Translations under genes and position numbers: made by a program | Part shown: positions 1 to 58,807 of the stretch, piece after piece | Position numbering within the stretch: the first letter of the stretch is position 1 | Layout: each line of letters begins with the position of its first letter | Notes under the pieces: model-generated | The model's input: the letters and a program-made list of their open reading frames with translations, nothing else | What the model was told of the DNA's origin: nothing | Database searches by the model: none | DNA from: Ignavibacteria bacterium | Lineage (GTDB): Bacteria > Bacteroidota > Ignavibacteria > Kapaibacteriales > UBA961 | Length of the DNA: 64,000 nucleotides | Direction of reading: 5' to 3' | Assembly (NCBI GenBank): GCA_016720145.1 | Contig: JADJXV010000007.1 | Coordinates: 103,426-167,425 of the forward strand

Positions 1-485
1 GATACTTCGCCCAAAAGTTTGTCTGAAGAGAAGGTCATCGGCGTTTCAAAGTCTGACTGCATCACCAAATCATTGATCATTCCCTGCAGTCCTAGTGAAC
101 GTCCATCATCGGGAGAGTAAATTCTCGCTATTCCATAAGCATGTAATTCTTCAATCTCTTGCGGGAGTATTGTTCCGCCGCCACCGCCAAATAATTTGAT
201 ATGACCAGCGCCTTTTGCTTTGAGCAAATCATACATATACTTGAAATATTCGACATGCCCACCCTGATAACTCGTAAGGGCAATCGCTTGCGCGTCTTCC
301 TCGATCGCGCAGTCCACAACGTCCTGTGCTGAACGGTTGTGTCCGAGATGAATTACTTCCACGCCGGTCGATTGGATGATCCTACGCATCACATTGATAG
401 CAGCATCGTGTCCGTCAAAAAGTGACGCGGCAGTGACGATGCGGATGGTATTTTGGGGCTTGTACGGTTGTAAAGGAGCTGTCAT
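1..485 (-). CDS. icmF: Fused isobutyryl-CoA mutase (IcmF-like), N-terminal B12-binding domain; 5' partial (C-terminus lies outside the window)
   Basis: Translating the minus strand from the ATG at 485 gives [128 protein letters not shown]. This matches the IcmF / methylmalonyl-CoA-mutase cobalamin-binding domain (DxHxxG with GGGG motif) almost residue for residue. The ORF track missed it because there is no stop codon inside the window. Confidence 0.75.
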
Positions 486-539
486 AATTTGTTGTTGTTA
501 TTGAAGTTGAGAGACTAATGATCACTATCAATTTATCTA

Positions 540-628
540 GTGTGGTCAGATTCTTTTATTGTAGGGCGAATTGCATTCGCCCTAACCCTAGCACGACCGG
601 GGCGAATGCAATTCGCCCCTACGAACCA
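540..628. repeat. Two inverted copies of a 19-bp near-palindrome (GGGCGAATTGCATTCGCCC) forming a composite inverted repeat; REP-like intergenic element
   Basis: The two copies are gtagggcgaattgcattcgccctaa and ggggcgaatgcaattcgcccctac, 35 bp apart. The same palindrome recurs at 1468-1490, with partial copies at 11697-11712 and 12078-12098. Confidence 0.7.
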
Positions 629-688
629 AAATCAATCTTCCACTAAAATTCTCAGAGTACCGGATTAATTTTATAATTATACTACCCA

Positions 689-1250
689 TCACCTCGCCAC
701 ACTGCCTGCACGAATCATCCCAAGCAGAGCATAAAGCACACCCGAAAGTGCTTCGATTGTTTGTGGATCAGTCACGATGCCATTTGTTATTTTTTGATTG
801 ACTGCCGCGATACTCAGCACACCACCAATGGGTACACGCGATCCGAGCTTGCAAGGTAAGCAGCAATGATGCCATTGCTTTATCGCCACCTGATGGAAGT
901 GGAGACGCGCTGATGGCTGCGACCGGCTTTTCATTGTACTGCGCAGAAGAGACCATCCAATCCAAACTATTTTTAAGGACACCCGGCACTCCGAAAGCGT
1001 ATTCGGGTGTACATATCACCACACCATCGGAGCTTGCTAGTAACTTGCGTAGATAGAGTACATGCTCAGCAACAAACTCATCATCACGCTCCGGCGAGAA
1101 ATGCGGCAAATCGCCAAGGTGTTGATATATCGTGAATTCCACTTCTTGAGGCGCAAGGGCTGCTATTGTCTGCAGAATTATAGCATTCGTCGAACCTATC
1201 CGTAAGCTGCCTGAGATTCCTAAAATTTTAATTGGCAAGCCAGGTGACAT
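689..1250 (-). CDS. NADPH-dependent FMN reductase family protein, interrupted by an apparent +1 frameshift near 848
   Basis: ORF 768..1250 carries the flavodoxin-like FMN reductase N-terminus (KILGISGSLRIGSTNAII...VICTPEYAFGVPGVLKNSLDW...AISASPLPSGGDKAMASLLLTLQ) and then becomes nonsense. The frame-shifted ORF 689..982 supplies a plausible C-terminus (RVPIGGVLSIAAVNQKITNGIVTDPQTIEAL). Removing one base near 846-850 joins the two. Confidence 0.6.
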
Positions 1251-1467
1251 ACAACGATATATTTAAAGTAAATGAAATGGTTTATTGACTGCGAAAATAC
1301 GTTTTTTTGGGTTCGGTTGGAACTTACCGGGCGTTCTCTACGGACACATGTCTGTTGTACAATAATGGAAATCCTAAACCTTAGTAGAAAATTGTACACA
1401 ATATGAAACCTTACTCCCTTTTTTCCTGATGTGTTTAATTGAGTTGCCTTCACGCACACACAATTTG

Positions 1468-1490
1468 GGCGAATGCAATTCGCCCCTACA
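1468..1490. repeat. Solo copy of the GGGCGAATGCAATTCGCCC palindromic element
   Basis: tgggcgaatgcaattcgcccctacaa is identical to the copy at 600-622. Confidence 0.7.
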
Positions 1491-1532
1491 ATACAAACAA
1501 TATTTCTATTTAACTATCATATAACTCAAATA

Positions 1533-1567
1533 AAAAGACCTTTTGCTACTACGGCAAAAGGTCTTTT
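1533..1567 (-). terminator. Rho-independent terminator (bidirectional hairpin) downstream of the lmo0937-family gene
   Basis: aaaagaccttttgc-tactacg-gcaaaaggtctttt is a perfect 14-bp stem. It is followed by a T-run on the minus strand and by ttttgga on the plus strand. Confidence 0.7.
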
Positions 1568-1633
1568 GGAGGTGCGGCTGAAGGTAACTATTCGTTTCCA
1601 CGAATCGACAGCCGGTTTGATGAAATGAATTGT

Positions 1634-1804
1634 CTAAAAGTCATCTCTCGGTAGTGCTCTATTCCCTTGAAGAATACGTACAATGAACGAGATAACTGCA
1701 ATGATAAGCAAGATATGGATCATTCCGCCAACACTGTATGCGAAGTAGCCGATCGCCCATAAGAGAATAAATAATACTGCTACTGTATAGAGAAGATTGT
1801 TCAT
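1634..1804 (-). CDS. lmo0937-family small membrane protein (56 aa)
   Basis: Minus-strand ORF below the 60-aa cutoff: MNNLLYTVAVLFILLWAIGYFAYSVGGMIHILLIIAVISFIVRILQGNRALPRDDF. The two-TM pattern WxIGF...GGxIHILLxIAxI-RxxxG is typical of the lmo0937 stress-protein family. A paralogue lies at 29385..29540. Confidence 0.6.
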   Translation of the reverse strand: MNNLLYTVAVLFILLWAIGYFAYSVGGMIHILLIIAVISFIVRILQGNRALPRDDF

Positions 1805-1839
1805 AGAACTAGATAAATTGTACGTGAGAAGATTAAGTA

Positions 1840-4800
1840 TTACTTCACAAGTATCATTTGCTTTGCTGTCACAAGTGTACCTACTTCTAATCGATACATA
1901 TACATTTCACTTCCGAGGTTGGATGCATCATCTCTTGTGAATGTTGCAGTATGATTACCGGCGTCCTGCATTTCACTCACGAGTGTTGCCACTTCTCTAC
2001 CGAGCATTGTAAATACTTTGAGGGTAACGACATCCGGCTTATCAATAGAATACTGAATCGTCGTCGAAGTGCTGAATGGATTCGGATAATTATCCGAAAG
2101 AGAGGATTGATTGCCGGCAATCGGACTCATCACCCCAAGCGGACTAAATCGTAAATCAGTCGAAAGTACAGGAGTCAGCTGATATCCACACACCAAATTA
2201 GCAGTTGCCTGACCGAGAACTCCTTCGAACGTAGCGAGCTTACTGTAAAACGGCATACCACCCATGCGTGTGTTTGTGTTCTTACCAATACGAATGACAA
2301 CCGTATTTGTCTTGTCTGATATGTCAGTATTTTGATAAATTTTTGGAGTTTGGAATACAACATCGCTATCCGAATCAACGGTTAGATTATTGACTCTGAT
2401 CATGCAGCTTTCGTACTGTTCGCCTGTGAGTGCAACTTGTACTAATGAAAGTACTGCAGATGCAGGCAGAGGATTAGCTCTTGACAATCGGAGAAAACCT
2501 ACTAAGTCAGTTGTATTAATTACTTTAAGGAAGTCGTGTTCAGAAATGCGACCTTCGATTCGTACTTTATCACCCATTGCTATTTCAGCATTTTGGACAT
2601 TCGAGTGGAATTGACCTGACACTTGGAAGAGTGTGAGTCCGCCGGTAGCATCTTGAATTCGCGTATAATCACCCATTGTTCGAGTTACAACTCCTTCGAC
2701 AATAACGAGAGTACCAATTGGCAAATCGCGTGCTGCTCGTATGGTATTGACACCTATCGTATCGATGCCTGTTCCGGTTACGGTGATTATGCTATTGCCT
2801 ACATTATGGTCGAAGTCTATATTAGCACTTACTTTACCTTGGACTTGTGGGGCAAAAGTAATAAAAAACTCTTGTGAAGCATTCGGAACAATCGTTCCGA
2901 TGATTGGTGTAATTGAATAGAACGGAGAACTTGAAGCGATATCTGATATAATCAAATCACTCACACCGGTGTTGGTCACATAGACGCTGAGCTGTTTTGT
3001 AGTTTTTACCCGAACATTTCCGAAATCGAGGTTCGATCTATTCACCGTGAACTTCGGAGAAAGGTCACTTCCTGAACTATTACCCGCTAAATAGAGAGTA
3101 TCTCTTGGGTTAGTTGCATTATGATGAAATGCTATATAGCCATTCTGCACGCTCATTGACAGAGGAGAGAAGTTCACATAAAACTTACGAGATGTGCCTG
3201 CCTCGACCACACCTGTACCAAGATCTATCGTATAAAATTTATTACTTGACTTCGCGCTCAAGATGATAAGATTGGCAGTACCTGAATTAGTGACTACGAT
3301 GCTATCTTTCTTGGTCGTGCCACTGACGACACTACCAAATACGAGGCTGAGAGGGTTAACGGAAAATGATGCAAAGACTGGATTACCAATTCCGGTACCG
3401 GTCACGTGTATTGAGTCTTTGGTAGTAGTAGAATTGACATTAAAACGAATCCAACCGTCTTGAATTCCTGATACTAACGGTGTAAAGGTAACATTGAATA
3501 TCCTCGAAGCACCCGGAGCAATCGTTGCATTGAGTGCTGTAAGTGTAAACGTAGTATTCGTGGATACAAAGCTTGAAATAATCAAATCCGCAGTGCCTGA
3601 ATTAGTCACGGTAACTGTTTCTGTTTTGGTTGTTCCATTGACGACATCTCCAAAGTTTACTTCCATCGGAGTGACGGCAAATTTTGATGAAATGCCCGTT
3701 CCACTCACAGTGATAGTATCTTTCGGATTCGCAGCATTATGCGTAAATACAATACTACCTGTTAGCAAGCCATCGGCTAAAGGTGCATACGTGAAGTAAT
3801 ATTTCAGCGTACCGCCGGGAATAATTGTTGCATTCGTTGGGGTTACGGCAAAGACTACATTACTACTCGTCACACTTGTGATCAGTAAATTTGATGTTCC
3901 GGTATTCGAGATTATGACTGAATCCGTCTTTTGTATTCCTTTACGTACATTTCCGAAATTCACAGAACTTACATTCGCTAAAAACTTTGGTGCGAGTCCA
4001 TTTCCACTGACCGATACAGTATCTTTTGGCTTGATTGCATTATGATTGAATATCAACTTACCCGCTTGAGCGCCGTCGGTTAATGGCGAATAGAGGATGT
4101 AAAATTTCATCGACGCGCCCGGTGCAATTGTTCCCGTAGCAGGAGTTACCGCAAAATATGAATTCGAGCTGGTGATGCTTGTCACGACGAGATTCGCAGA
4201 GCCGGAATTTGAAACAGTCACCGAGTCTTTTTTATTCAATCCGCTCACGACACTTCCGAAATTAATAGTAGAAGGTGTGACTGTTGCAATCGGCGAATTC
4301 CCGTTTCCATTGACTGCAATAGTATCCCTTGGCTTGGCAGCATTATGCGAAAATATAATATTGGAGGTTTGATACCCATTGGACAGAGGCGAATAGGTGA
4401 TCATAAATTGTTTTGTGCCGCCGGGTGTAATTGTACCACTAGTAGTATTGACGGAAAACACTGAGTTTGAACTCGTTACATTCGTGATGACCAAGTCTGC
4501 ACCACCTGTATTAGTCACAATAACCGTATCAATTTTACTTGTAAAGTTCGCTACGTTGCCATAGGTAACTTGATAATGATTTGCAGAAAAAATTGGTGAA
4601 GCGGTAGAAGTTGCCCTGACGGTAGTAACGCCTGATGCCATCGTCACCGCAGCCGAAAAAGCAAGTGCACGCCCGTCCATTGAAGCGCCTGTACCAAATG
4701 ATATAGACTGATCAGCCAAAATTGTTCCCTTGAATACTGAATAAGTACCTAAGGTCGCTGATGTACCTACCTGCCAAAAAATATTGGATGCCTGTGCTCC

Positions 4801-5379
4801 ACCTGCGAGTATAATTTTAATACCGCTGCCGAGGTTGAGCGAACTCCCAATCTGAAATATCCAGACGTCCGTTGCATTGCCGGTGAGCGTCACATCTGCT
4901 CCGGTGATATTTGCTGCGCCGGTGAATTTGTAGAGTCCGGGTGCGAGATTTAAGCCACCAATATTGCTACCGCCGGGATTAAGAAATGCACCTGTTGGTA
5001 CGGGAGTTCTATTGGCTGCTTCGGTGTAAGCTGTTGTCAAATCACTCTTTGCTGTTTGTAATAATGTAGAATTTATCACCGAACCTGACGGACCGGAAGC
5101 ATCGACGACATACAAAGTGCCGACTACATTCGAACCGTCAAAACCTGTAATATAGCTCCCTGCAGCCGGGCTGAGACCCACATTTCCGGTGATTGTTACC
5201 GGTGGTACTCCTGTGACGGTCGAGCCGGCAAGGATCACAAAATTACTGAGAGAAAGTAGATTCAAAGGTGCTATTCCTGCCACCATCGTTGTCGTCATCA
5301 TCGCTGCGAGGAGTATCACTCCAAGCATCCGAGCGAATTTGTCATACATAGTGTTTATGTATTTATTAGAAATTTTCAT
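1840..5379 (-). CDS. Giant T9SS-secreted surface protein: signal peptide, ice-binding-like (DUF3494) beta-helix domain, about 7 choice-of-anchor-D/ASH-like Ig repeats, C-terminal T9SS sorting domain
   Basis: The N-terminal block (...LYVVDASGPSGS...TAYTEAANRTP...DVWIFQIGSSLNLGSGIKIILAGGAQASNIFWQVGTSATLG...MDGRALAFSAAVTM) matches DUF3494 ice-binding-like proteins. About 80-aa repeats with NFGNV..G..K.DSV.V.N.G...L.I..... are choice-of-anchor D-like. The C-terminus (...LKVFTMLGREVATLV...YMYRLEVGTLVTAKQMILVK) is a T9SS C-terminal domain. Confidence 0.85.
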   Translation of the reverse strand: MKISNKYINTMYDKFARMLGVILLAAMMTTTMVAGIAPLNLLSLSNFVILAGSTVTGVPPVTITGNVGLSPAAGSYITGFDGSNVVGTLYVVDASGPSGSVINSTLLQTAKSDLTTAYTEAANRTPVPTGAFLNPGGSNIGGLNLAPGLYKFTGAANITGADVTLTGNATDVWIFQIGSSLNLGSGIKIILAGGAQASNIFWQVGTSATLGTYSVFKGTILADQSISFGTGASMDGRALAFSAAVTMASGVTTVRATSTASPIFSANHYQVTYGNVANFTSKIDTVIVTNTGGADLVITNVTSSNSVFSVNTTSGTITPGGTKQFMITYSPLSNGYQTSNIIFSHNAAKPRDTIAVNGNGNSPIATVTPSTINFGSVVSGLNKKDSVTVSNSGSANLVVTSITSSNSYFAVTPATGTIAPGASMKFYILYSPLTDGAQAGKLIFNHNAIKPKDTVSVSGNGLAPKFLANVSSVNFGNVRKGIQKTDSVIISNTGTSNLLITSVTSSNVVFAVTPTNATIIPGGTLKYYFTYAPLADGLLTGSIVFTHNAANPKDTITVSGTGISSKFAVTPMEVNFGDVVNGTTKTETVTVTNSGTADLIISSFVSTNTTFTLTALNATIAPGASRIFNVTFTPLVSGIQDGWIRFNVNSTTTKDSIHVTGTGIGNPVFASFSVNPLSLVFGSVVSGTTKKDSIVVTNSGTANLIILSAKSSNKFYTIDLGTGVVEAGTSRKFYVNFSPLSMSVQNGYIAFHHNATNPRDTLYLAGNSSGSDLSPKFTVNRSNLDFGNVRVKTTKQLSVYVTNTGVSDLIISDIASSSPFYSITPIIGTIVPNASQEFFITFAPQVQGKVSANIDFDHNVGNSIITVTGTGIDTIGVNTIRAARDLPIGTLVIVEGVVTRTMGDYTRIQDATGGLTLFQVSGQFHSNVQNAEIAMGDKVRIEGRISEHDFLKVINTTDLVGFLRLSRANPLPASAVLSLVQVALTGEQYESCMIRVNNLTVDSDSDVVFQTPKIYQNTDISDKTNTVVIRIGKNTNTRMGGMPFYSKLATFEGVLGQATANLVCGYQLTPVLSTDLRFSPLGVMSPIAGNQSSLSDNYPNPFSTSTTIQYSIDKPDVVTLKVFTMLGREVATLVSEMQDAGNHTATFTRDDASNLGSEMYMYRLEVGTLVTAKQMILVK

Positions 5380-5407
5380 TGTATAAACCTTTTATTTGCT
5401 GATGTAG

Positions 5408-5432
5408 TACTGCTTTCTTTCTGAAAGTTCAG
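5408..5432 (-). promoter_or_regulatory. Conserved leader/promoter motif ACTGAACTTTCA-N9-AGCAGT (minus-strand sense), about 30-50 nt upstream of the start codon
   Basis: Read on the minus strand, the motif ACTGAACTTTCA-N-AAGA-N-AGCAGT occurs at the same distance upstream of three minus-strand genes. The copies are at 5408-5432, 11331-11355 and 28175-28199. The geometry GAAC-N16-GT resembles an ECF-sigma -35/-10 pair. Confidence 0.4.
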
Positions 5433-5460
5433 TTTATTCGAAGTCGGTGTAAATGAAGTC

Positions 5461-5540
5461 AGATTATGTTAACCGCAATGTTCGCAGAGATGAGATCTTC
5501 TGAGTACTGTCTTTGCGAACGTTGCGGTTAATGCATTTGT
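5461..5540. repeat. Long inverted repeat (about 22-bp arms, about 30-nt loop) between the tandem giant paralogues
   Basis: ttaaccgcaatgttcgcagag ... ctttgcgaacgttgcggttaa. Confidence 0.6.
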
Positions 5541-5567
5541 TGATTTATTCGAGTAGTAGATTAAAAA

Positions 5568-5655
5568 AGACTTACGGAACGGAATGTAATGTAAAGTGAA
5601 AACGCCGAAATTTTCATAATACTATCCACATCAGCCATTCCGTAAGTTTTTATTT
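5568..5655 (-). terminator. Putative rho-independent terminator of the 1879-aa gene (large-loop hairpin followed by a T-run on the minus strand)
   Basis: cttacggaacggaatg ... cattccgtaag. The stem sits immediately 3' of the stop at 5661, and the minus-strand reading is followed by tctttttt. Confidence 0.45.
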
Positions 5656-5660
5656 TATAA

Positions 5661-8600
5661 TTACTTCACGAGTATCATTTGTTTGGTTGAGGAATAGGAT
5701 CCCACGTCCAAACGGTAGTAATATACTTCGCTGCCGAGGAGAGGAGAGCTGCTGTTGGCTGTGAAAGTCACCGTATGCATTCCTGCATTTTGAAACTCAT
5801 TCACCAAGGTCGCCACTTCTTTGCCGAGCAACGTAAATACTTTGAGATTAACCATATCCGATGTGCCAATGCTATACTGTATCGTCGTCGAAGCATTGAA
5901 TGGATTCGGATAATTGCTAGAGAGCGAATAGTCGTTTCCGGTCTGTTGATTGAATATACCTGTTGGCGCAAAACGTAAGTCGGTCGGAAGGACCGGAGTC
6001 AATTGATAGCCGCATGTAATACAGCTACTTGACTGACTAAGGACACCTTCAAAGGTAACGGGAGTTTCGTATATGTTCATTCCGTCCAAGTACGTATCAG
6101 CAGTCACACCGATTCGAATGACCACAGTATTTGCCTTGTCGGAATTATCAGTCACCTGATATGTCTTTGACTCTTGGAACGTAAGGTCACCATCTGAAGT
6201 CATATTCATATTATCTATTTTGATCAAACAGCTTTCATACTGTTCACCACGGAGGGCGATATCAGCAAGTGTCACTTTGAATGGAGTAGGTAATGGATTC
6301 GTACGTGACAAGATTGAGTGACTTGTTAAATTACTACTCGTTATAATCTTCAGATTATCCATCTCGGTAATTTTACCTGCTACACGTAGTTTATCACCCA
6401 TACTTACTTCAGGAGCAAGAGCTTGCAAACCGAATTCACCTGTTTCATGGAAGAGAGTCAGTCCACCGGTCGCATCTTGAATTCTGGTATAGCTGCCTAA
6501 AGTTCGCGTTACAACTCCTTCTGTTATAAAACTCGTACCGATAGGCAAATCACGTGCTTCTTTAATAGTAATCACACGCATCGAATCGACACCGTTTCCG
6601 GTTACATTGAGGATGCTTGATCCACCGTTATGAACGAAGGTAATCGTTGATGTTACACGACCTACTACTGTCGGCGAGAAGGTCACAAAGTATTCCTGAG
6701 AAGCACCTTGAAGTATTGTTCCTGTAGCAGGAGTCACTGTATAATGACTATCACCCGACACAATACTCGTGATGACCAAGTCACCGGTACCGGTGTTTGA
6801 TATCATCACACTTAATTGCTTTGATGTAGTAATTACCACATTGCCGAAGTCAAGACTTTGTGAGGCAAATGTCAATTTCGGCGACACTCCTACACCTCTA
6901 AGCGATATAATCGCAGGAGAATTAAGTCCATTATGTGTAATGGACATATTACCAGTTTGCAAGCCATCGACTATCGGGGAGAATGTCACATTATACTGTT
7001 GACTCATACCCGATGAGAGGGTTGTTCCTGATGGAGTGAAGGTAAACACACCATTTGAACTCGTTATATTGCTTATAGTTAAATCACCCAAGCCCGTATT
7101 GGTAATAGTCACCGGCAGTACTTTAGTAGTGCCTGTGCGTACATTCCCAAAATCGAGATTTTGTGTACTGATTGAAATCGATGAAAGTACTCCAGTACCT
7201 GTCACTGCAATTACATCCGTTGCATTTGATGCATTGTGATTAAAGGTAATACTGCCGGTATGGAATCCGGTCGAAAGTGGAGCGAATGTGACGGAGAATG
7301 TTTGAGAAGAGCCCGGTGCGATTGTTCCAATTGCAGGGGAAATACTAAACTGTGCATTCGTACTCGACACGCCGTTGATCACGAGGTCTGACGTACCGGC
7401 ATTGGTCACTATGACGGTCATTACTTTGCTCACACCTACGCCAACATTACCAAAATCAAGACGTTGCGTATTAGCTACAAACATTGGCGATACACCTGTG
7501 CCTGTCACAGCAATCATGTCGATTGCGTTCGTTGCGTTATGATTAAAGATAATCATACCCGATTGCGATCCGTTCGCCACGGGAGAGAACGTGACAAAGA
7601 ATTGCTGAGTTGCTCCCGGAGCAATTGTCCCTGAATTCGGTGAAACACTAAATACACCATTATTACTCGACACACCACTGATGATCAGATTATCTGTACC
7701 GGTATTGGTCACTGTAATCGAACGTACACTCGATGTAAAATTTCTCACATTGCCGAAGTCGAGAGATTGTACATTCGAGCTGAACTGAGGGGAAATTCCA
7801 GTACCAATCACTATAATCGTATCTAATGGCTTCGCACCATCGTGCGTAAAGATAATAGTACCTGTTCTCAGGCCATCAGCTTGCGGCGAGAAGGAAAGGT
7901 AGAATTTCTGTGAAGCACCCGGAGCAATGATTCCTAAAGTAGGTGTAGCTGTAAATACTACATTCGAACTCGTTACACCGCTTATAATTAGATTCGTTGT
8001 GCCGGTGTTGGTAATTGTCACAGAGTCCATTTTGCTTGTGCCTGTACGGACATTTCCAAAGTTCACTATAAGAGCGCTTGCAGAGAACATCGGCGATACA
8101 CCAACTCCTGTGAGTGTGACTGTATCTTTTGGCTTCGCTGCGTCATGATTAAACACTAATAAACTATTCTGCATACCATCTGTTAACGGCGAGAAAGTCA
8201 CATAGAATTTCATCGAAGCGCCCGGAGCGATTGTACTTGTAGCAGATGGAGTGACTGTATATCGTGGATTCGTACTCGTGACACTGCTAATAACTAGACT
8301 TGTTGTACCGCTATTGGTCACAGTGACGGAGTCCATTTTGGTTGTGCCATTTCTGACATTTCCAAAATTCAAACTCTGTGGATTCACGGTAAATAATGGA
8401 GATACTCCCGTACCTGACACTGTAATCGTGTCTTTAGTTTTGTCAGCATCTCCTGTAAAGATTATCAATCCTGACTGAGCGCCATCAACCAAAGGCGAGA
8501 ACGAAAGGTAGAATTTCTGTGAGGCACCGGGCGCAAGTGAGCCGGTAGTAGGAGTGACTGCGAAACGACCGTTCGTACTTGTTACATTACTTATAGTTAG

Positions 8601-11300
8601 AGTAGAAGTACCAGTGTTGGTAATTACCACTGAGTCCTGCTTGGTTGTACCATTGCGGACATTTCCGAAGCTCACACTTTGTACACTTTTCGCAAGTACC
8701 GGTGATACACCCGTTCCTGTGACACTAATCGTATCTCGAGGAATAAGCGCGTTGTGATTAAAGATAATTAGTCCTGTTTTCACACCATCGGTAAGTGGAG
8801 CAAATGTCACATAGAATTTTTGTGACATACCTTGGGTAATTGTTCCTGTAGCAGGAGTTACCATAAATAGTCCATTCGTACTTGTGATACTGCTTATTAC
8901 CAGATCCGAGGTTCCGGTATTCGATACCGTGACCGAATCCATTTTCGTCGTTCCATTGCGTACATTCCCGAAATTCAAATTCACGACATTTGCAGTAAAT
9001 TTTGGTGATACACCTGTACCACTGAGAGAAATTGAGTCTTTTGGATTGAGTGCATTATGATTGAAATAGACAAATCCCGACTGCGAGCCATCTGCAATTG
9101 GAGCGAATGTCACATAATACTTCTGTGATCCACCGGGGGTAATTGTTCCCGTAGTCGGTGTCACAGTATAGCGTGCATTCGATGTCGTCACACTGCTGAT
9201 GATGAGGTCAGATGTACCTGTATTGGTAATCGTAACCGAGTCGAGCTTGGTCGTACCATTTCTCACATTGCCGAAATTCAGACCTGCAAGGCCTGCACTG
9301 AAGAGAGGCGACACACCAGAACCTGATACAGAATAGATACTTGAAGGGATTTTTGCATTATGGTTAAATGTAAACGTACCTACTTGAAATCCATCGACCA
9401 ACGGTGCGAACGTGATATAATACTTCTGAGATGATCCCGGAGTAAGTGTTCCCGAAGTCGGTGTAATTGTAAATCGTGTATTCGAACCTGTAACGCTTGT
9501 AATCACCAAATTGGATGTTCCGGTATTGGTCACCGTGATAGAATCCATCTTGGTAGTCAGATTACGAACATTGCCGAAATCAAGTGAGACGGGAGCTGCC
9601 GTGAAGAACGGAGAAACTCCTGAGCCACTTACCATGATTGTATCTTTTGGCTTAGCGGCATTATGATTAAACACCACCGTCGCTGTTTGCGCGCCATCGA
9701 CTAAAGGAGCGAATATAAAGTAATACTTGAGTGTAGCACCCGGAGCAATTGTGCCTGTGGTCGGCGTGACCGTAAAGAGCATATTCGAGCTAACGACACT
9801 TGTAATTCTGAGCGTGTCTGTACCGGTATTCGTCACGGTTACGGAGTCTCTTTTCGTACTATCATTGCGTACATTACCGAAATTCAAAGTAGTTGGCACA
9901 GCAGAGAAGAATGGAGAAACACCTGTTCCCGACACATTAATCGTATCTTTTGGCTTGGCAGCATTGTGACTGAAAATGATTCTTCCTGATTGAGCACCAT
10001 CGGCAAGCGGAGCGTAGGTGATATAAAATTTCCTCGTTCCGTTAGGTGTAAGAGTGTCGGTAGTAGGAGTGACGGTATATCGTGCATTTGTGCTCGTCAC
10101 GCTTGTGATCATAAGATTCGCCGTGCCGGTATTGGTCACGGTAATCGAGTCAAGCTTCGTCTGATTATTCCGTACATTCCCAAAATTGATCGTATAAGTA
10201 TTGGATGAAAATATGGGAGAAACTCCTGTACCGGTAGCAACTACCGTATCCCGAGGTTTGGATGCATTATGGACAAAAATTATATTGGCATTTTGATTGC
10301 CGTTTCCTGTAGGTGTATAAGTAATATAGAATTGTTTAACTGAGTCAGGCATAATAGTCGCCGATGTCGATGACACGGTGAACTGTGTGTTTGAGCTTGT
10401 AACATTGGTAATCACTAGATTAGCACCACCGGTGTTTTTCACACGAATAGTGTCAATTTTGCTCGTAAAGTTAGCGACATTGCCAAAAGTCGCTGTTAAT
10501 GAATCAGCCGAAAACACAGGGAATAGAAATGCACGTGTTGAAACCACAGCAGACCCCATCGTAACAGCTGCTGAAAATGCCAACAATCTACCATCGATTG
10601 CCGCACCGGTACCGAGTGAAATTGACTGGTCTGCAAGGATACTTCCCTTGAAGACAGAATATGTACCAAGTGTAGCAGATGTACCGACTTGCCAGAATAT
10701 ATTTGCTGCCTGAGCGCCACCGGCAAGGATGATTTTGATACCGCTGCCCATGTTGAGCGAACTCCCAATCTGAAATATCCACACATCGGTTGCATTGCCG
10801 GTGAGTGTGAGGTCTGCGCCGGTAATATCTGCCGCGCCGGTGAATTTATAGAGTCCGGCAGCGAGATTCATGCCACCCATGTTGCCTGCGCCCGGATTGA
10901 GAAATGTGCCTGTCGGCACCGGTGTTCGATTCGCTGCATCGTTATAAGCAGTTGTCAAATCACCCTTTGCGGTCGTTAATAGACCCGCGTCAATCGTTGA
11001 GCCGGAAGGTCCTGAAGCATCAACTACATATAAAATTCCATCCACATTTGACCCGTCGAAACCTATCACAAAGCTACCGGCAGCAGGACTGAGTCCGATA
11101 TTACCGGTTATGGATACAGGTGGAATACCTGTAATCGTCGAACCTGCGATGATCATAAAATTGTCAAGAGAAAGGAGATTGAGAGGCGGAATTCCGGCAA
11201 ATGATGGCGTTGCTGCCATCATGATTGCTACAGAAAGCACACTCAATAAGCGAATGTACCGAGAGTACATACTCGCGACGAGTACGTTAAAAATTTTCAT
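5661..11300 (-). CDS. Giant T9SS-secreted surface protein, paralogue of 1840..5379: DUF3494 ice-binding-like domain, about 15 choice-of-anchor-D/ASH-like repeats, T9SS C-terminal domain
   Basis: The N-terminal 250 aa and C-terminal about 330 aa are nearly collinear with the downstream paralogue. The central NFGNVRNGTTK...VT.TNTGTS.L.I repeats are expanded (about 15 versus 7). It ends with the T9SS C-terminal domain (...VYYYRLDVGSYSSTKQMILVK). Confidence 0.85.
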   Translation of the reverse strand: MKIFNVLVASMYSRYIRLLSVLSVAIMMAATPSFAGIPPLNLLSLDNFMIIAGSTITGIPPVSITGNIGLSPAAGSFVIGFDGSNVDGILYVVDASGPSGSTIDAGLLTTAKGDLTTAYNDAANRTPVPTGTFLNPGAGNMGGMNLAAGLYKFTGAADITGADLTLTGNATDVWIFQIGSSLNMGSGIKIILAGGAQAANIFWQVGTSATLGTYSVFKGSILADQSISLGTGAAIDGRLLAFSAAVTMGSAVVSTRAFLFPVFSADSLTATFGNVANFTSKIDTIRVKNTGGANLVITNVTSSNTQFTVSSTSATIMPDSVKQFYITYTPTGNGNQNANIIFVHNASKPRDTVVATGTGVSPIFSSNTYTINFGNVRNNQTKLDSITVTNTGTANLMITSVTSTNARYTVTPTTDTLTPNGTRKFYITYAPLADGAQSGRIIFSHNAAKPKDTINVSGTGVSPFFSAVPTTLNFGNVRNDSTKRDSVTVTNTGTDTLRITSVVSSNMLFTVTPTTGTIAPGATLKYYFIFAPLVDGAQTATVVFNHNAAKPKDTIMVSGSGVSPFFTAAPVSLDFGNVRNLTTKMDSITVTNTGTSNLVITSVTGSNTRFTITPTSGTLTPGSSQKYYITFAPLVDGFQVGTFTFNHNAKIPSSIYSVSGSGVSPLFSAGLAGLNFGNVRNGTTKLDSVTITNTGTSDLIISSVTTSNARYTVTPTTGTITPGGSQKYYVTFAPIADGSQSGFVYFNHNALNPKDSISLSGTGVSPKFTANVVNLNFGNVRNGTTKMDSVTVSNTGTSDLVISSITSTNGLFMVTPATGTITQGMSQKFYVTFAPLTDGVKTGLIIFNHNALIPRDTISVTGTGVSPVLAKSVQSVSFGNVRNGTTKQDSVVITNTGTSTLTISNVTSTNGRFAVTPTTGSLAPGASQKFYLSFSPLVDGAQSGLIIFTGDADKTKDTITVSGTGVSPLFTVNPQSLNFGNVRNGTTKMDSVTVTNSGTTSLVISSVTSTNPRYTVTPSATSTIAPGASMKFYVTFSPLTDGMQNSLLVFNHDAAKPKDTVTLTGVGVSPMFSASALIVNFGNVRTGTSKMDSVTITNTGTTNLIISGVTSSNVVFTATPTLGIIAPGASQKFYLSFSPQADGLRTGTIIFTHDGAKPLDTIIVIGTGISPQFSSNVQSLDFGNVRNFTSSVRSITVTNTGTDNLIISGVSSNNGVFSVSPNSGTIAPGATQQFFVTFSPVANGSQSGMIIFNHNATNAIDMIAVTGTGVSPMFVANTQRLDFGNVGVGVSKVMTVIVTNAGTSDLVINGVSSTNAQFSISPAIGTIAPGSSQTFSVTFAPLSTGFHTGSITFNHNASNATDVIAVTGTGVLSSISISTQNLDFGNVRTGTTKVLPVTITNTGLGDLTISNITSSNGVFTFTPSGTTLSSGMSQQYNVTFSPIVDGLQTGNMSITHNGLNSPAIISLRGVGVSPKLTFASQSLDFGNVVITTSKQLSVMISNTGTGDLVITSIVSGDSHYTVTPATGTILQGASQEYFVTFSPTVVGRVTSTITFVHNGGSSILNVTGNGVDSMRVITIKEARDLPIGTSFITEGVVTRTLGSYTRIQDATGGLTLFHETGEFGLQALAPEVSMGDKLRVAGKITEMDNLKIITSSNLTSHSILSRTNPLPTPFKVTLADIALRGEQYESCLIKIDNMNMTSDGDLTFQESKTYQVTDNSDKANTVVIRIGVTADTYLDGMNIYETPVTFEGVLSQSSSCITCGYQLTPVLPTDLRFAPTGIFNQQTGNDYSLSSNYPNPFNASTTIQYSIGTSDMVNLKVFTLLGKEVATLVNEFQNAGMHTVTFTANSSSPLLGSEVYYYRLDVGSYSSTKQMILVK

Positions 11301-11330
11301 AGTAATTACCTGAAAGGATGATCGAATTCA

Positions 11331-11355
11331 AACTGCTCTCTTGATGAAAGTTCAG
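11331..11355 (-). promoter_or_regulatory. Second copy of the ACTGAACTTTCA...AGCAGT leader motif
   Basis: actgctctcttgatgaaagttcagt lies 31-55 nt upstream of the ATG at 11300. Confidence 0.4.
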
Positions 11356-11516
11356 TTTTTGAGGTCGGATGAGGATATGGAATGAACCATTATTGAGGAT
11401 GTGCGCTATCTTTGAGTTATGCAAAGAGTTACACTTGAGTTTGAAGGGAGTAGCCGTTCGTTTGACAGGGGCTGTTTTACTCTGTATCCCTTTGTTTGTG
11501 CTGTTTTTCTATAGCA

Positions 11517-11591
11517 CAAAATTAAGGCAAGAGTGTCCCGAGTATGTTACGTAACCTTAGGTATTACTTACATGATTCACATGTGAGTTGT
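11517..11591 (-). promoter_or_regulatory. Candidate promoter: TAATTTTG -7 box plus a conserved upstream 50-nt motif (TGTGAATCATGTAAG.AATAC...TTACGTAACATAC), shared with the OmpA gene upstream region
   Basis: The minus-strand TAATTTTG at 11517-11524 matches the Bacteroidetes -7 consensus TAnnTTTG. Exactly 17 nt upstream lies a motif nearly identical to 28408-28447, which shows the same spacing to its own TAATTTTG at 28383-28390. Confidence 0.45.
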
Positions 11592-12125
11592 CTTCGTGGG
11601 GGCACTTGGTGAATGGCACGCTGATGACGCTGATTTTTATGATTGAAGAAAATGGATATAGTGGTGTATCGCTTGTGTGAGGTGTAGAATTTTGAGCCGG
11701 CGAATTGCATTCAATGATGTCAACTCAAGAATTCGGCATTTGCTTGATGCGTAGAGGCAAGCGCAGCATGACAAACTGTTTACCTCACCCTGAGTTATCA
11801 AGTGGCTGCAGCCTGCCCCTATCAAAAAGCAATGACACAGACTATAATACGAACCCTAAGAACCCACACCCTCCCCTCTCCCAAGAGAGGGAACTAGTCA
11901 GAAAATCAATTACTTACAAACCAAAGTCCCCTCTCGGGAGGGGATTTAGGGGTGGGTTAAGCGCTGGATAAGATAAACAACCTTCTTCCAAAAGAAACCT
12001 ATGTAATAATTGTGTCATTAACAGGGAGTCGTAGGGTTCAATTACATACCTATTTTTTCCTTAAGCTGACAGCATTGGAATTGCATTCGCCCTTACAGTA
12101 TGTCTATGATTATAGCCGCAAGTCT

Positions 12126-12557
12126 TTACATCCGTTCCATATACCAATTTAGTTCCTTTTCCATTTTCTTGTAGCGGAAGATGCTGGTAATGATTTTTTG
12201 CAAGCGAACGAATGCTGTCTCACTTTTGACTACATAGTCAAATGCTCGATGATGCATGCAATTTATTGCTACGTCAATTTTATCTTGAGATGACAGCATA
12301 ATCACCGGAATATCAGGATTATATGCTTTAATCTTGTCTAAGGTTTCTATACCGTTCATAGCGAATTTGTCTATACCATCGAGATGGTAATCGAGGATAA
12401 TCACATCCGGAGATCGTGACAAATTCTCCATGCACTTCTCACCGGTCGGATAGGTCTCAATGACAAAATCAGCATGCTCAAGAAATTCGATTTCTAGTAA
12501 TTTTAAGAATACTGCATCATCATCGACAAGGAATATTTTAATCTTTTCTGTGTTCAT
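12126..12557 (-). CDS. Single-domain response regulator (CheY-like receiver)
   Basis: IKIFLVDDDAVFLKLLEIEF...DVIILDYHLDG...IPVIMLSSQDKIDVAINCMHHRAFDYVVK. It overlaps the upstream kinase gene by 4 nt (ATGA). Confidence 0.85.
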   Translation of the reverse strand: MNTEKIKIFLVDDDAVFLKLLEIEFLEHADFVIETYPTGEKCMENLSRSPDVIILDYHLDGIDKFAMNGIETLDKIKAYNPDIPVIMLSSQDKIDVAINCMHHRAFDYVVKSETAFVRLQKIITSIFRYKKMEKELNWYMERM

Positions 12558-15256
12558 CGTTTCGTGTTTTTTATAGTGTTAAATTCCTCTTCCAATTCTC
12601 TACATGCTTGATCGCAAATGAGTTCTAGCTGTAGAACCAATTCATGAATCCCTTCTGTTTGCCGTTGAGTGCTGGCATATTCTTGTATTTTCTTTGCCAT
12701 ATTTTCGAAGTCCTCACTAATCCCCATAATCGCAAAAGACGGTATCATTTTGTGTACAGCCGAGTAAAGTGTATTCCAGTCTTTATCCTGAAAGCTCTGC
12801 TTCATCGAGATAATCAGCGTTGGCGTCTGCTCTAAATACAGCGAAATCATTTCCATCATGAGTGTTGGATTGGACTTGGTACGATTGAGGAGATACGCTA
12901 GGTCAATACACCGCTGTTTTTTCGTTTCGACAAACAACTTTTCTTTTACTTCAATGAGCGACATTGGTTTTTTGACTAACCCAATGATTTTACTATATAA
13001 TATTCGTTCATCGACCGGCTTTGCTATATAATCGTTCATCCCGACTGCCTTACATTTTGCCAGATCGACCGTTGTCACATCTGCAGTGAGTGCAATAATC
13101 GGGATCTTGGAATTCATCGTGTTGCGAATATACTGCGTCGCTTCAAAACCATTCATTTCAGGCATTTGCAAGTCCATGAGAATAATGTCGTAGGTTTTGG
13201 AATGGAGCTTTTCAATCGCAATTTTCCCGTTGGCTGCTATGTCTCGTTCAAATCCAAAATCGTCTAGCAATGTCTTCATCAGTAATTGATTGAGAGCGAT
13301 ATCTTCTACCACAAGTACCTTTATATTCTTGATATCGTCATCAAGACTGAGTACTATTTCTTCAAGCTCTGCCTGCTCTATTGTCTTTTGAAAGGTGAGA
13401 GTAAAGCTAAAAGTAGAACCCTCTCCGAGCTTGCTTTTGACCCGGATACTGCCGCCCTGCGACTCGACTAATTGCTTGACAATTGCGAGTCCGAGACCGG
13501 TTCCGCCATACAACCGAGAAGTGCCGCTCGATGCCTGCTGAAAATTCTCAAAAATCTTGGTAATCTTGTCCTTCGGAATACCGATGCCGGTATCTTTGAC
13601 CGCAAATTCTACGGTGACATTTTCATCAGTTTCACTTATTAATTTAACACTTATGGTGATTTTACCGGTGTTGGAAAATTTCACAGCATTGCTCACAAGG
13701 TTCAGGATAATCTGATGTAATCGCACCGGATCACCTAAAAGGAATTCCGGAATAGTATTGTCGTAAACAATTTCCTGATCTAAGTTTTTTTCCTGAATTT
13801 TTGTTTCGAAAAGATGTACCATCGCCGAAAGCGACGCTTCCATTTTAAAAGGAATTTTCTCAAATGTCATCTTGCCGGCATCTACTTTCGCTAGATCGAG
13901 AATATCATTAATAAGCACTATTAGCGAGTCACCACTCATTTTAATAGCAGTCAAGTATTCTTTTTGTTTGGCACTGAGGTCGGTCTTGAGCAACACCTTG
14001 GTAAATCCTATAATTGCATTCATTGGTGTACGAATTTCGTGGCTCATATTCGAGAGGAATTGCTGCTTTGCTTTTACTGCTTCCTCGGCTTTGATCTTGG
14101 CTTCCTCGGCGAGCATCGTCGCAAGCTCAGCAAATACTTTTGCTTCAATGAGTTCCTTCTCGTTCCTTTTCTGGTCGGTAATATCACGAGCGACAATCAC
14201 CGCACCAAGCACATTCCCGCGGTCATCTTTATAGACCGAACCGTTAAAGAGTACATCGGTGAGCTCTCCATCGATAATCGTAAGAGGGTAATCAGCGACA
14301 AATCCCTTAGCAAAGACTTCTTTATATACTTCTGATGCTCTGTCTGAATCCGTAAAATAATCCTTAAAATCACTATTGCGCAGCTTTTCCCGCGATACAC
14401 CGGTTACTTTGACCATTGCCTCATTCATATCGGTGATTTTCCCATCGGTGCTGATAGTGACAAGAGGATCGCGACTTGCTTCTATCAAGCTTAGAGAGTA
14501 TTGTGAAAGAAGTTTTTTGGCAGTAATGTCCGAACGGATCGACACAAATTGATAGACTTCACCTTGTTCATTCTTGAATGGTACAATCGTAGAGTCCACC
14601 CAATAGTTGGTACCATCTTTTGCTTTGTTTTTAATTTCACCTCGCCAAATTTTTCCGGTGCAAATAGTATCCCATAATTCCCGCATAAACTCTTTAGGAT
14701 GAAATCCAGAATTGACTAACCTATGATCTTGCCCTATTAACTCTTCCCTTTTGTACTTTGAAATTTTACAAAAATTGTCATTTGCGTAGTTAATAATTCC
14801 ATTTTTATCAGTGATAGCTACTATCGACGACTCCTCAAGTGCTAGTTTATACCCGGAAATTTCATTCAAACTCTTCTCGAGATTCGCTTCTACCTTTTTT
14901 TGTTTTGTCACGTCTCGCGCTGCTGCAAATACACCGAGAACTTTGCCGTTGTCATCTTTATAAACTGATGCATTATAAAGCACATCCGTTAATTGACCGT
15001 TGACATGCCTCACCGTCAGCGGATAGTCGGCCACGAAGCCCTTCTCAAATACTTGTCGATATCCTATCTCCGCTTTCTCGGGTTCGGTAAAATACATGCT
15101 GAAGTTCGTCCCGATAAGCTTATCCCGACGAATACCGGTAACTTTAATCGACGCCTCATTGACGTCGGTGATTTTCCCTTCGGCACTGATCGTCACGAGT
15201 GGGTCCAAGCTCGCCTCTATCAGACTACGAGAATATTGTGAAGCTAATTGAACCAA
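12554..15256 (-). CDS. Hybrid sensor histidine kinase: 3 PAS/PAC, HisKA, HATPase_c, receiver and HPt domains
   Basis: Three PAS/PAC units (e.g. ...FVADYPLTVRHVNGQLTDVLYNASVYKDDNGKVLGVFAAARDVT) are followed by SNMSHEIRTPMNAIIGF (H-box). The ATPase region carries DTGIGIP...GGTGLGLAIVKQLV (G-boxes), then a REC domain (VLVVEDIALNQLL...ILMDLQMPEMNGFE) and a C-terminal HPt-like segment. The ORF-track start (TTG at 15256) is probably not the true start. See the next feature. Confidence 0.9.
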   Translation of the reverse strand: MVQLASQYSRSLIEASLDPLVTISAEGKITDVNEASIKVTGIRRDKLIGTNFSMYFTEPEKAEIGYRQVFEKGFVADYPLTVRHVNGQLTDVLYNASVYKDDNGKVLGVFAAARDVTKQKKVEANLEKSLNEISGYKLALEESSIVAITDKNGIINYANDNFCKISKYKREELIGQDHRLVNSGFHPKEFMRELWDTICTGKIWRGEIKNKAKDGTNYWVDSTIVPFKNEQGEVYQFVSIRSDITAKKLLSQYSLSLIEASRDPLVTISTDGKITDMNEAMVKVTGVSREKLRNSDFKDYFTDSDRASEVYKEVFAKGFVADYPLTIIDGELTDVLFNGSVYKDDRGNVLGAVIVARDITDQKRNEKELIEAKVFAELATMLAEEAKIKAEEAVKAKQQFLSNMSHEIRTPMNAIIGFTKVLLKTDLSAKQKEYLTAIKMSGDSLIVLINDILDLAKVDAGKMTFEKIPFKMEASLSAMVHLFETKIQEKNLDQEIVYDNTIPEFLLGDPVRLHQIILNLVSNAVKFSNTGKITISVKLISETDENVTVEFAVKDTGIGIPKDKITKIFENFQQASSGTSRLYGGTGLGLAIVKQLVESQGGSIRVKSKLGEGSTFSFTLTFQKTIEQAELEEIVLSLDDDIKNIKVLVVEDIALNQLLMKTLLDDFGFERDIAANGKIAIEKLHSKTYDIILMDLQMPEMNGFEATQYIRNTMNSKIPIIALTADVTTVDLAKCKAVGMNDYIAKPVDERILYSKIIGLVKKPMSLIEVKEKLFVETKKQRCIDLAYLLNRTKSNPTLMMEMISLYLEQTPTLIISMKQSFQDKDWNTLYSAVHKMIPSFAIMGISEDFENMAKKIQEYASTQRQTEGIHELVLQLELICDQACRELEEEFNTIKNTKR

Positions 15257-16008
15257 ATTATTAGACGCTTCTAATTCCTGCCGGACAGATTCGCGGATCT
15301 CGGTTTGTTTGTTTTGATAGTCAAGTTCGCGGTCGGCGATGACAAGCTCTGCGGCGCGCTTGTCTTTCTCTTCATTTTGGAAGGCAAGTTCTTTATTTGC
15401 AACGAGTAATTTAGCTGTGAGCTTCCCTTTTTCTTCATCCTGATACGCGAGCTCGATATTAGCAAGACCCAGCTCAGCGGCGCGCTTGCCTTTCTCTTCA
15501 TTTTGGAAGGCAAGTTCTTTATTAGCTACGACTAACTCAGCAGCACGCTTGCTTTTTTCTTCGTCTTGATACGCAAGCTCAATATTAGCAAGTCCCAGCT
15601 CAGCAGCGCGTTTGCCTTTTTCCTCGTCTTGATAGGCGAGTTCGATATTCGCAAGACCAAGCTCGGCGGCGCGCTTGCCTTTTTCCTCGTCCTGAAAAGC
15701 CAGCTCAATATTTGCGAGCCCAAGTTCAGCAGCTCGTTTGCCTTTTCCTCATCCTGAAACGCGAGTTCGATATTGGCTATACCAAGCTCCGTGGCTCTTT
15801 TTTCTTTTTCTCCATCCTGAAACTCAAGCTCTTTGTTGGCTATTCCGAGTTCGGCAGCACGCTTCCGCCGCTCAATGTTTTGAGTGTCAATTTCCTTGCG
15901 AACGCTAGCCAATTCTGCAATCAGTGTTTGATTTTCAGCTATTTGAATATCAAGTTCACTTTGAAGGCGGACTATATCATCGACAGATGGGTTAGTTTGG
16001 TATGCCAT
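15257..16008 (-). CDS. N-terminal extension of the hybrid kinase: coiled-coil plus about 10 tandem 21-aa repeats (ELGIANIELAYQDEEKGKRAA), separated from the kinase frame by a 1-nt homopolymer indel near 15745
   Basis: The ATG at 16008 opens MAYQTNPSVDDIVRLQSELDIQIAENQTLIAELASVRKEIDTQNIERRKRAAELGIANKELEFQ... Restoring one base in the T4 run at 15744-15747 (T5 in the other repeat copies) puts the reading in the kinase frame. That frame has no stop from about 15745 to 15256 and reads ...EEKGKRAAELGLANIELAYQDEEK...LVANKELAFQNEEKDKRAAELVIADRELDYQNKQTEIRESVRQELEASNNLVQLASQYS..., which continues into the kinase. It also contains no ATG, GTG or TTG before 15256. The DNA has a 63-bp tandem periodicity. 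Confidence 0.6.
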
Positions 16009-51871: not shown

Positions 51872-51960
51872 CAAAAACTGAAATTACCGTAAGTTATCAT
51901 TGCAAGATATCATTGTAAGTTATCATTGCAAGTTAGCGTTGTAAGTTATCATTGGATAAA
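51872..51960 (+). promoter_or_regulatory. Conserved upstream element AAACTGAAATTACCGTAAGTTATCATTG followed by five tandem 13-14-bp repeats (GTTATCATTG[CT]AA)
   Basis: ggcaaaaactgaaattaccgtaagttatcattgcaa-gatatcattgtaa-gttatcattgcaa-gttagcgttgtaa-gttatcattgg. A single-copy homologue (gggcagaaactgaaattactgtaagttaccattg) lies at 63775-63808, upstream of the next paralogue. Confidence 0.4.
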
Positions 51961-58073: not shown

Positions 58074-58775
58074 TCATAAGTTCTTTTCAATAATAGCAAC
58101 TAAGCAATATGATATTATGGCACAATAAATTTGAATTTTAACAGCATTCTCACTATTGCCCCAAAAGGATTTAATTTTTAGATGCTGTTTAATCCATTTA
58201 AAAAATAGTTCAACTTGCCAACGATTTTTATAAAGTAGTGTAATTTGCTCAGCCGTAAGTTCCATATTATTAGACAAATATGAAAACGTTTTGTCACTTT
58301 CTTTATCATAATAAATAACTTGGCGAATTTCATTAGGATAATCTTTAGACGCATAAAACCCTGTTAGTGTTCCTACTTGATCGCTTATTACTCCTGTGTT
58401 TTCATTGATTTTATTGAGCCGATTACATTTGAATTTAAGGTTTTTTTTTGCTCGAACAACAAAATATGCTGAGTGGTTACAAATCTTATTAAGTCTTTTA
58501 AAATCAATATATCCACGATCAAAAACATAATAAGCACCATACTCATAAGGAATAACATCCATTGCATTCATATCATTGACAGAGGCTTCAGTTATATGAA
58601 TGAAAGCTGGTATTTGAGTACAAATGTCATAGAGTGTATGAATCTTGATCCCGGCTTTAAATTTGCGAAATTTTGCCCACCATGTCAGATGTAGTGCTAT
58701 CACTTTGGCTTCTTTGCAAGCATTGTTTTTGTGCCCTTCGACTTCTTTTTTCTTTAGTGGCACTAGTGAAACCAA
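58074..58775 (-). mobile_element. N-terminally truncated IS4/IS5-superfamily (DDE_Tnp_1) transposase remnant
   Basis: ...WAKFRKFKAGIKIHTLYD...YYVFDRGYIDFKRL...YKNRWQVELFFKWIKQHLKIK carries the second D and the E of the DDE triad and the YxxRWxxE signature. The first-D region is missing. The reading frame is closed by a TAG that overlaps the start of the adjacent giant gene. Confidence 0.7.
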
Positions 58776-58807
58776 TCTATCTTTTTTACTATTACAGAGT
58801 GTGTGCT

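Follow-up and report, generated by a model that had tools for sequence, protein, structure and literature searches.

DUF3494 is the commonest microbial ice-binding fold, yet the majority of proteins with this fold are from environments that do not freeze. In SfIBP_1 of Shewanella frigidimarina (PDB 6BG8), a DUF3494 domain is carried on an immunoglobulin (Ig)-like tether, and the protein is a proposed ice adhesin (Vance, Graham & Davies 2018, cited in an Arctic metagenome survey, PMC9957290). Ig-like tethers hold the ice-binding domain off the cell both in SfIBP_1 and in MpIBP, the 1.5-MDa RTX ice adhesin of Marinomonas primoryensis (PMC9957290, PMC5550230). A simpler arrangement, in which DUF3494 is joined to a sorting domain (tail) of the type IX secretion system (T9SS) in proteins of ~350 amino acids, is very common in Bacteroidota, Ignavibacteria, and Fibrobacterota. 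Here, we analyze a 64-kb stretch of DNA from an Ignavibacteria bacterium (hereafter, the window) that encodes two adjacent proteins, A and B, in which a DUF3494 head is followed by a stalk of choice-of-anchor-D Ig-like repeats, a tandem OB module, and a T9SS tail. Both are already public under a generic name, being identical to NCBI records MBK9248287.1 (A) and MBK9248288.1 (B), each called 'MAG: choice-of-anchor D domain-containing protein [Ignavibacteria bacterium]' and both located on a contig of 279,923 bp. The two belong to a widespread, T9SS-linked, stalked DUF3494 set that extends the known Ig-tethered theme. An original prediction, made from the sequence of this window, called the architecture uncharacterised, which is an overstatement: DUF3494 proteins with an Ig-like tether have been described, namely SfIBP_1 and those covered by the survey cited above.

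Two paralogous genes with one architecture

Open reading frames (ORFs) lie exactly at 1840-5379 (gene A) and 5661-11300 (gene B), in agreement with the prediction of adjacent minus-strand genes of 1179 and 1879 amino acids. All features of the two genes given below are likewise on the minus strand. Gene B runs from a signal peptide-like start through a DUF3494 head, 13 choice-of-anchor-D repeats, and a tandem OB module to a T9SS tail, and gene A has the same architecture with 6 repeats. The predicted DUF3494, choice-of-anchor-D, and T9SS tail assignments are borne out by PF11999, NF012200, and TIGR04183, all of which score above their cut-offs. We read A and B as old paralogous T9SS cargo that probably form cell-surface fibers of two lengths, with a probability of roughly 0.6.

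The N-termini of both proteins look like Sec signal peptides when the translations are read by eye, with a basic n-region, a hydrophobic core, and an AG-I junction in each. The signal peptide-like segment of B (11193-11300, approximately residues 1-36) has a K/R-rich start and a hydrophobic core followed by SFAG-IP, in which AG-IP is conserved in homologs. That of A (5272-5379, approximately residues 1-36) ends in MVAG-IA and is kept in an ortholog that has lost its head, described below. At the other end, a T9SS type-A C-terminal sorting domain covers residues 1098-1179 of A (1843-2088) and residues 1797-1879 of B (5664-5912). TIGR04183, with a cut-off of 23 bits, scores 28.2 bits on full-length A, 30.9 bits on its C-terminal part, and 27.6 bits on the C-terminal part of B, while the Pfam model PF18962 gives 24.7 (A) and 20.5 (B) bits, below its gathering score of 27. 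A SprB-type gliding adhesin was considered and set aside because the tail is type A (TIGR04183).

The two proteins had been described as nearly identical at their ends. They are more diverged than this, with amino acid identities of 75% over signal peptide and head, 81% over the head core, and 67% over the tail. At the DNA level, the N-terminal ends share 72% identity and the C-terminal ends 65%. Their paralogy, proposed at the outset, is supported.

Age and stability of the long and short forms

A scan of one genome per species returned a single related locus, in Candidatus Kapaibacterium sp. STL-BAC57, where adjacent proteins of 1879 and 1180 amino acids are 82% identical to B (0 gap columns) and 80% identical to A (3 gap columns). 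The window and this locus are collinear over 9.9 kb at 76% DNA identity. An independent ENA assembly of the same species (L002) is 99.9% identical in DNA to the first and has the same protein lengths and neighbors: genes for a hybrid PAS histidine kinase and for a response regulator lie upstream, and those for a DUF5670 mini-protein and for a flavin mononucleotide (FMN) reductase lie downstream. A search of the literature on 'Kapaibacterium' returned taxonomy papers only.

A third species, found in the Logan assembly SRR31089938 (L003), encodes a B ortholog of 1879 amino acids that aligns to B without gaps at 80% identity. Its A ortholog (6511-9420 of that locus; P0284, P0283) has 969 amino acids and has lost the DUF3494 head by a clean in-frame deletion, while the signal peptide, six repeats, tandem OB module, and T9SS tail are kept. 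This head-less form is present in two protein clusters, with 7 and 2 member sequences, and is therefore not a one-off assembly error.

The pair with 13 and 6 repeats and the same flanking genes thus occurs in three species and four assemblies, and the synonymous sites between these species are saturated (dS > 1). A synteny comparison with related genomes had been suggested as a check, and it recovered the same pair and flanking genes in STL-BAC57 and L003. The 13 + 6 arrangement predates the split of the three species, so the pair is old and was not recently duplicated. This overturns the proposal of a recent duplication followed by a change in repeat number, which is at odds with a pair shared by three species, with dS > 1, and with zero indels over the 1879 residues of B.

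Repetitive adhesin genes are often misassembled, MpIBP being one example (PMC5550230), and the prediction had itself raised the alternative that the difference in repeat number reflects an assembly collapse. The age of the pair rules out both a collapse and a recent duplication. An artefact, or a very recent and unstable expansion or contraction, would also have to produce counts of 13 and 6 in each of four independent assemblies from three species, with B orthologs that are collinear and free of indels. The repeat units themselves are at most 70% identical in DNA, their longest exact common run is 20 nt, and Tandem Repeats Finder reports no 303-bp array in the genes. Taken with the four assemblies, this low DNA identity between repeats excludes the collapse and leaves the artefact explanation with next to no probability.

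Every module of the two proteins is under purifying selection, most strongly the head. In comparisons of B with its two orthologs, the ratio of nonsynonymous to synonymous substitution rates (dN/dS) is ~0.025 for the head, 0.10 for the stalk, 0.07-0.09 for the OB module, and 0.16-0.20 for the tail; these ratios are rough, dS being saturated, but their ranking is clear. Amino acid identities follow the same order, with the B head 92% identical to its orthologs and the B stalk 79-80%, and with values of 91% for head and 76% for stalk between A and its ortholog. The head thus changes at about a quarter of the rate of the stalk behind it, which points to a specific binding task. The loss of the head from the A ortholog of L003 runs counter to this.

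The repeat stalk and its variation across the family

The stalk of A (2761-4593, residues 263-873) consists of 6 choice-of-anchor-D Ig-like domains, and that of B (6585-10517, residues 262-1572) of 13 tandem 101-residue domains of the same kind, which belong to the HYDIN/VesB/ASH type of Ig-like fold. The NCBIfam model NF012200 (choice_anch_D, cut-off 45 bits) matches A in 6 stretches (231 bits, E 2e-69) and B in 13 stretches (569.9 bits, E 9e-175), and many overlapping Pfam families of Ig-like type (HYDIN/VesB/ASH/DUF1573) cover the same regions. The earlier estimates of about 7 and about 15 repeats with a period of 80 residues are corrected accordingly to 6 and 13 repeats, with FGNV landmarks recurring every 101 residues, apart from two 105-residue units in A and a single 102-residue unit in B.

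Repeat units are 33-66% identical in protein. The best matches between A and B are the terminal ones, with A1-B1 at 64% and A6-B13 at 50%, while the internal repeats B2-B9 are most alike among themselves (52-66%). This pattern indicates an old internal expansion in B or an old contraction in A.

Proteins that combine the head, n repeats, the tandem OB module, and the tail form at least 30 clusters at 90% identity, with n = 2, 3, 4, 5, 6, 7, 8, 9, 10, 11, and 13. This family is a stalked version of the ~350-residue DUF3494 proteins with a T9SS tail. The suggestion that stalk length is evolving therefore holds across the family, which spans 2-13 repeats, but not for the A/B pair, in which the counts are fixed in three species.

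A more distantly related locus with multiple stalked genes lies on a 420-kb contig from an activated-sludge metagenome (DRR046818; L008, 9001-20191). Here, three tandem genes come after a block of AraC, PAS kinase, and multi-response-regulator genes that resembles the one in the window. The three encode a head with 11 repeats, a head with 9 repeats, and a 347-residue protein consisting of signal peptide, tandem OB module, and tail only. The two long proteins are 88% identical to each other over the head and 79% over the tail, compared with 82-86% and 57-63%, respectively, to A or B. This greater similarity between the two suggests either an independent duplication or homogenization by gene conversion. 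The remaining relatives are single genes in unrelated contexts. One of the family sequences, P0295 (978 amino acids, 4 repeats), is found in identical form under the names Desulfobulbaceae bacterium and Candidatus Kapabacteria bacterium, and one of the two genome bins is probably contaminated.

A tandem OB module before the sorting domain

Between the last repeat and the sorting domain, both proteins contain a module of ~208 amino acids that the original prediction overlooked. It covers residues 874-1081 in A (2137-2760) and residues 1573-1780 in B (5961-6584), and the two copies are about 55-56% identical. Pfam and NCBIfam searches yield faint matches only, to OB-fold families and to the N-terminal part of the ExeM/NucH extracellular nucleases. 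A word-indexed protein search was empty, and the possibility of an orphan domain was dropped when a full HMMER search of 1.84 billion cluster representatives found 1036 relatives at E <= 1e-3, of which 135 reach E <= 1e-30.

The module ends 80-130 residues before the C-terminus in 74 of 178 full-length copies, and every one of the scanned relatives with the module at this position has a T9SS tail there. Some proteins contain 2-6 copies of the module, and the domains found in its relatives include DUF5689, lamin-tail domains, and T9SS tails. Among 40 aligned homologs, 22 match PF18942 (DUF5689), the best with an E value of 2.5e-9. The modules of A and B do not match PF18942 at E <= 0.01, so that their link to DUF5689 is a transitive one.

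AlphaFold2 modeling of the A copy with a 40-sequence alignment gives a mean predicted local distance difference test (pLDDT) score of 94.6 and a predicted template modeling (pTM) score of 0.90, compared with a pLDDT of 35.5 from an alignment of two sequences. Fold searches with the model of A recognize the five-stranded β-barrel of an OB fold, with matches to nucleic-acid-binding OB folds, and a profile search against PDB sequences gives one marginal match, RPA32, at E 0.27. Because the model is confident and 22 of the 40 homologs match PF18942, we assign the module as a tandem OB fold, divergently related to DUF5689.

In an alternative reading, the proteins would be secreted and released as a matrix or biofilm scaffold, with the OB module binding extracellular DNA or polysaccharide and the repeats and head cross-linking the matrix. 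Its distant relation to DUF5689, the faint ExeM/NucH matches, the accompanying lamin-tail domains, and the resemblance to nucleic-acid-binding OB folds are all consistent with such a role. So are the small, stalk-less proteins made of signal peptide, tandem OB module, and tail (P0128, and X3 of L008) and the activated-sludge source of L008, a floc and biofilm habitat. However, the two modules are acidic to neutral (net charges of -1 and -7), which does not speak for DNA binding, and their location just ahead of the sorting domain is as compatible with a base close to the membrane. A nuclease domain or further matrix-binding domain is also absent from the proteins. On balance, we consider a released scaffold unlikely.

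The DUF3494 head and its ligand

The head, a DUF3494/Ice_binding β-solenoid, occupies residues 37-260 in both proteins (4600-5271 in A, PF11999 E 9.5e-56; 10521-11192 in B, E 1.1e-53). Both matches (189.2 and 182.4 bits) exceed the cut-off of 28.7 bits, and they cover model positions 1-204 and 1-207 of 208. The solved structures nearest to the A head are those of FfIBP (7EHK/4NU2; E ~5e-45, about 45-50% identity), and the DUF3494 domain of SfIBP_1 (6BG8) is a detectable homolog at E 3.7e-14.

Given this similarity to the hyperactive FfIBP and a PF11999 match at E ~1e-54, A and B may be genuine ice adhesins or ice-binding proteins, in which the head binds ice and the stalk tethers the cell or holds ice off the outer membrane, a function proposed for SfIBP_1 and demonstrated for MpIBP. 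The ice-binding face of FfIBP carries regular T-A/G-X-T/N motifs (PMC5334608), and small hydroxyl residues are kept at these positions, with STVT, QSIS, and AAVT aligned to TGIT, TGIN, and TAVT of FfIBP when the alignment is read by eye without coordinates. In Arctic metagenomes, moreover, Ig-like domains are the commonest partners of DUF3494 (PMC9957290). Several features may argue against ice as the ligand. The head contains no cysteine and thus lacks the capping-head disulfide of FfIBP-type hyperactive ice-binding proteins (PMC10853241). NF045625, the NCBIfam equivalog for characterized ice-binding proteins of the CFB group, is missed by a wide margin (186.5 and 190.4 bits against a cut-off of 400). 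DUF3494 has been described as a putative ice- and substrate-binding family found in many environments and widespread outside icy habitats (PMC12337378).

The habitats of relatives with the same architecture point in the same direction. The named source of one such relative is an activated-sludge metagenome, rather than an ice-associated habitat of the kind known for Ig-tethered ice adhesins of the SfIBP_1 and MpIBP type. Other relatives carry the bin names 'HGW-Ignavibacteriae-1' and 'GWB2_35_12', names in use for groundwater series. The accession block of the window's own genome probably belongs to Danish activated-sludge MAGs assembled from long reads. Because the few relatives of named source come from activated sludge and presumably from groundwater, we consider ice a less likely ligand of the head than a non-ice one, for example a polysaccharide, matrix, or mineral surface, and a true ice-binding function appears improbable. 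Literature searches for non-ice functions of DUF3494 or for T9SS-linked ice-binding proteins found nothing specific.

Proposed role of the A/B pair

Type-A T9SS cargo is exported by Sec and recognized through its C-terminal domain; it commonly loses this domain and becomes linked to the cell surface by the C-terminus that results. If A and B follow this route, Sec would export them through the N-terminal signal peptide, and the type-A sorting domain would be recognized for passage across the outer membrane. Cleavage of the tail would then leave a new C-terminus by which the protein is held on the cell surface, as other T9SS cargo is. The resulting order would place the tandem OB module next to the membrane, followed by the Ig-like stalk, with the DUF3494 β-solenoid at the far tip.

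By analogy with the MpIBP extender, which spans 0.6 µm with about 120 repeats (PMC5550230), an Ig-like domain of ~100 residues may contribute ~5 nm, which would give a reach of ~30 nm for the 6 domains of A and ~65 nm for the 13 domains of B. The head would be the working end and would most likely bind an extended, ordered surface through the flat face of its β-solenoid. The idea of a surface adhesin with a distal head, put forward in the original prediction, fits this topology and is reasonable, but its adhesive part is an inference.

Several points weigh against surface fibers of this kind. Expression, secretion, and surface retention are all deduced from sequence, and release into the medium is known for some type-A T9SS cargo. 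No T9SS machinery genes were identified in the 64-kb window, to which the search was confined. The head-less A ortholog implies that stalk, OB module, and tail may have a role of their own, or that this copy is decaying. The shortfall against NF045625 can also be counted here, and it speaks neither for nor against adhesion.

A more specific form of the surface-fiber reading is a conserved 'two-reach' adhesion system of non-icy habitats. The head would have evolved toward an ordered surface other than ice, for instance floc polysaccharide or a mineral, and would be displayed on stalks of 6 and 13 domains maintained together in several species. The PAS kinase and regulator would control the pair, and the OB module would act as a surface-proximal socket, with the 11 + 9 pair of L008 being independent or gene-converted. 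We advance this as a tentative proposal, and a rather doubtful one in its full form. If true, it would be the first non-ice function for DUF3494 and a case of selection for stalk-length dimorphism.

Flanking genes and possible regulation

The spacer between B and A (5380-5660, minus strand) contains two elements that are conserved in the three species. A terminator-like hairpin with arms at 5563-5582 and 5635-5654, followed by a T run, lies just 3' of B, and an imperfect palindrome with 22-nt arms, TTAACCGCAAC...GTTGCGGTTAA (5469-5490/5510-5531), could be an operator or an RNA hairpin. The hairpin after B and the conserved palindrome suggest that A probably has its own transcription start and promoter. 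The motif ACTGAACTTTCA is found ~35-60 nt upstream of the start codons of both A and B. A scan for sigma-70 promoter-like and terminator-like sites, run without Bacteroidota-type promoters, found them at chance frequency, and Rfam gave no match in window positions 1-16000.

Upstream of the pair, a single-domain response regulator (12126-12557) and a PAS-rich hybrid histidine kinase (12554-15256), both on the minus strand, are syntenic in L002 and L008. On the basis of this synteny, we speculate that the two are candidate regulators of the pair. The intervening region upstream of B (11301-12125) is an unusually long non-coding stretch of 825 bp with no Rfam match, and G+C-rich inverted repeats (CCCCTCCCGAGAGGGGA and related, 11885-11950) lie just downstream of the response-regulator gene. 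Directly downstream of A, a 56-residue DUF5670 membrane protein (1634-1804, minus strand) is conserved in this position in L002 and L003, and a strong terminator-like hairpin (1533-1567) follows its gene.

Beyond the pair, at least three other ORFs in the window have T9SS tails or related Ig repeats, which suggests that T9SS cargo is abundant in this genome; judged by domain content, the window is rich in putative T9SS cargo. Three further giant surface-protein genes were noted. One with choice-of-anchor-D-like repeats and a cohesin-like domain lies at 34913-38878, and a DUF7948 paralog with an SBBP repeat and Ig-type domains at 40595-43933. The other DUF7948 paralog (58673-63745) combines SBBP repeats, choice-of-anchor-D-like Ig repeats, and a T9SS tail. 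In the region 51952-57782, a tail-less 1674-residue ORF with DUF7948, PKD, and choice-of-anchor-D-like repeats ends at 56976 and overlaps a 271-residue ORF (56967-57782) in which a T9SS tail is the sole domain. A single gene has probably been broken into these two ORFs by a frameshift or by an error in sequencing.

Comparison with known systems

The tandem OB fold and the place before a T9SS tail are shared by the modules of A and B with DUF5689 (PF18942) of T9SS cargo and with BOF/YgiW-like OB domains, although the modules in the window fall short of PF18942 at E 0.01. Single-domain DUF3494 proteins with a T9SS tail (~350 amino acids) and FfIBP have the same head, with 57-82% identity among the closest matches, and the same type-A tail. 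They differ from A and B in having no stalk and no OB module, and FfIBP itself has the capping-head disulfide and proven antifreeze activity.

SfIBP_1 is anchored N-terminally and has its DUF3494 domain at the C-terminal end, with a few BIg-type domains. It resembles A and B in its signal peptide, in a tether of tandem Ig-like β-sandwiches thought to hold DUF3494 to the cell, and in its proposed adhesin role. In A and B, by contrast, the order is reversed, with the head N-terminal and the anchor C-terminal through the T9SS tail. They also have a stalk of 6 or 13 choice-of-anchor-D domains with a tandem OB module behind it, and probably a non-icy habitat. With MpIBP (PMC5550230), A and B share an extender of ~100-residue Ig-like domains that sets the reach of ligand binding. 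MpIBP uses type I secretion and has about 120 identical repeats, whereas A and B would use the T9SS and have diverged repeats (33-66% in protein). MpIBP binds ice through a Ca-dependent RTX β-roll that has no relation to DUF3494, and it has additional sugar- and peptide-binding domains.

A and B therefore do not represent a new principle but extend the Ig-tethered ice-adhesin idea to the T9SS and probably to another ligand. The main points of interest are a possible non-ice role for a strongly constrained DUF3494 head and the lasting pair of long and short forms. Kept side by side across species, these two forms offer a simple case in which to ask whether selection acts on adhesin reach, for which the head-less variant and the stalk-less variant with OB module and tail provide natural controls.

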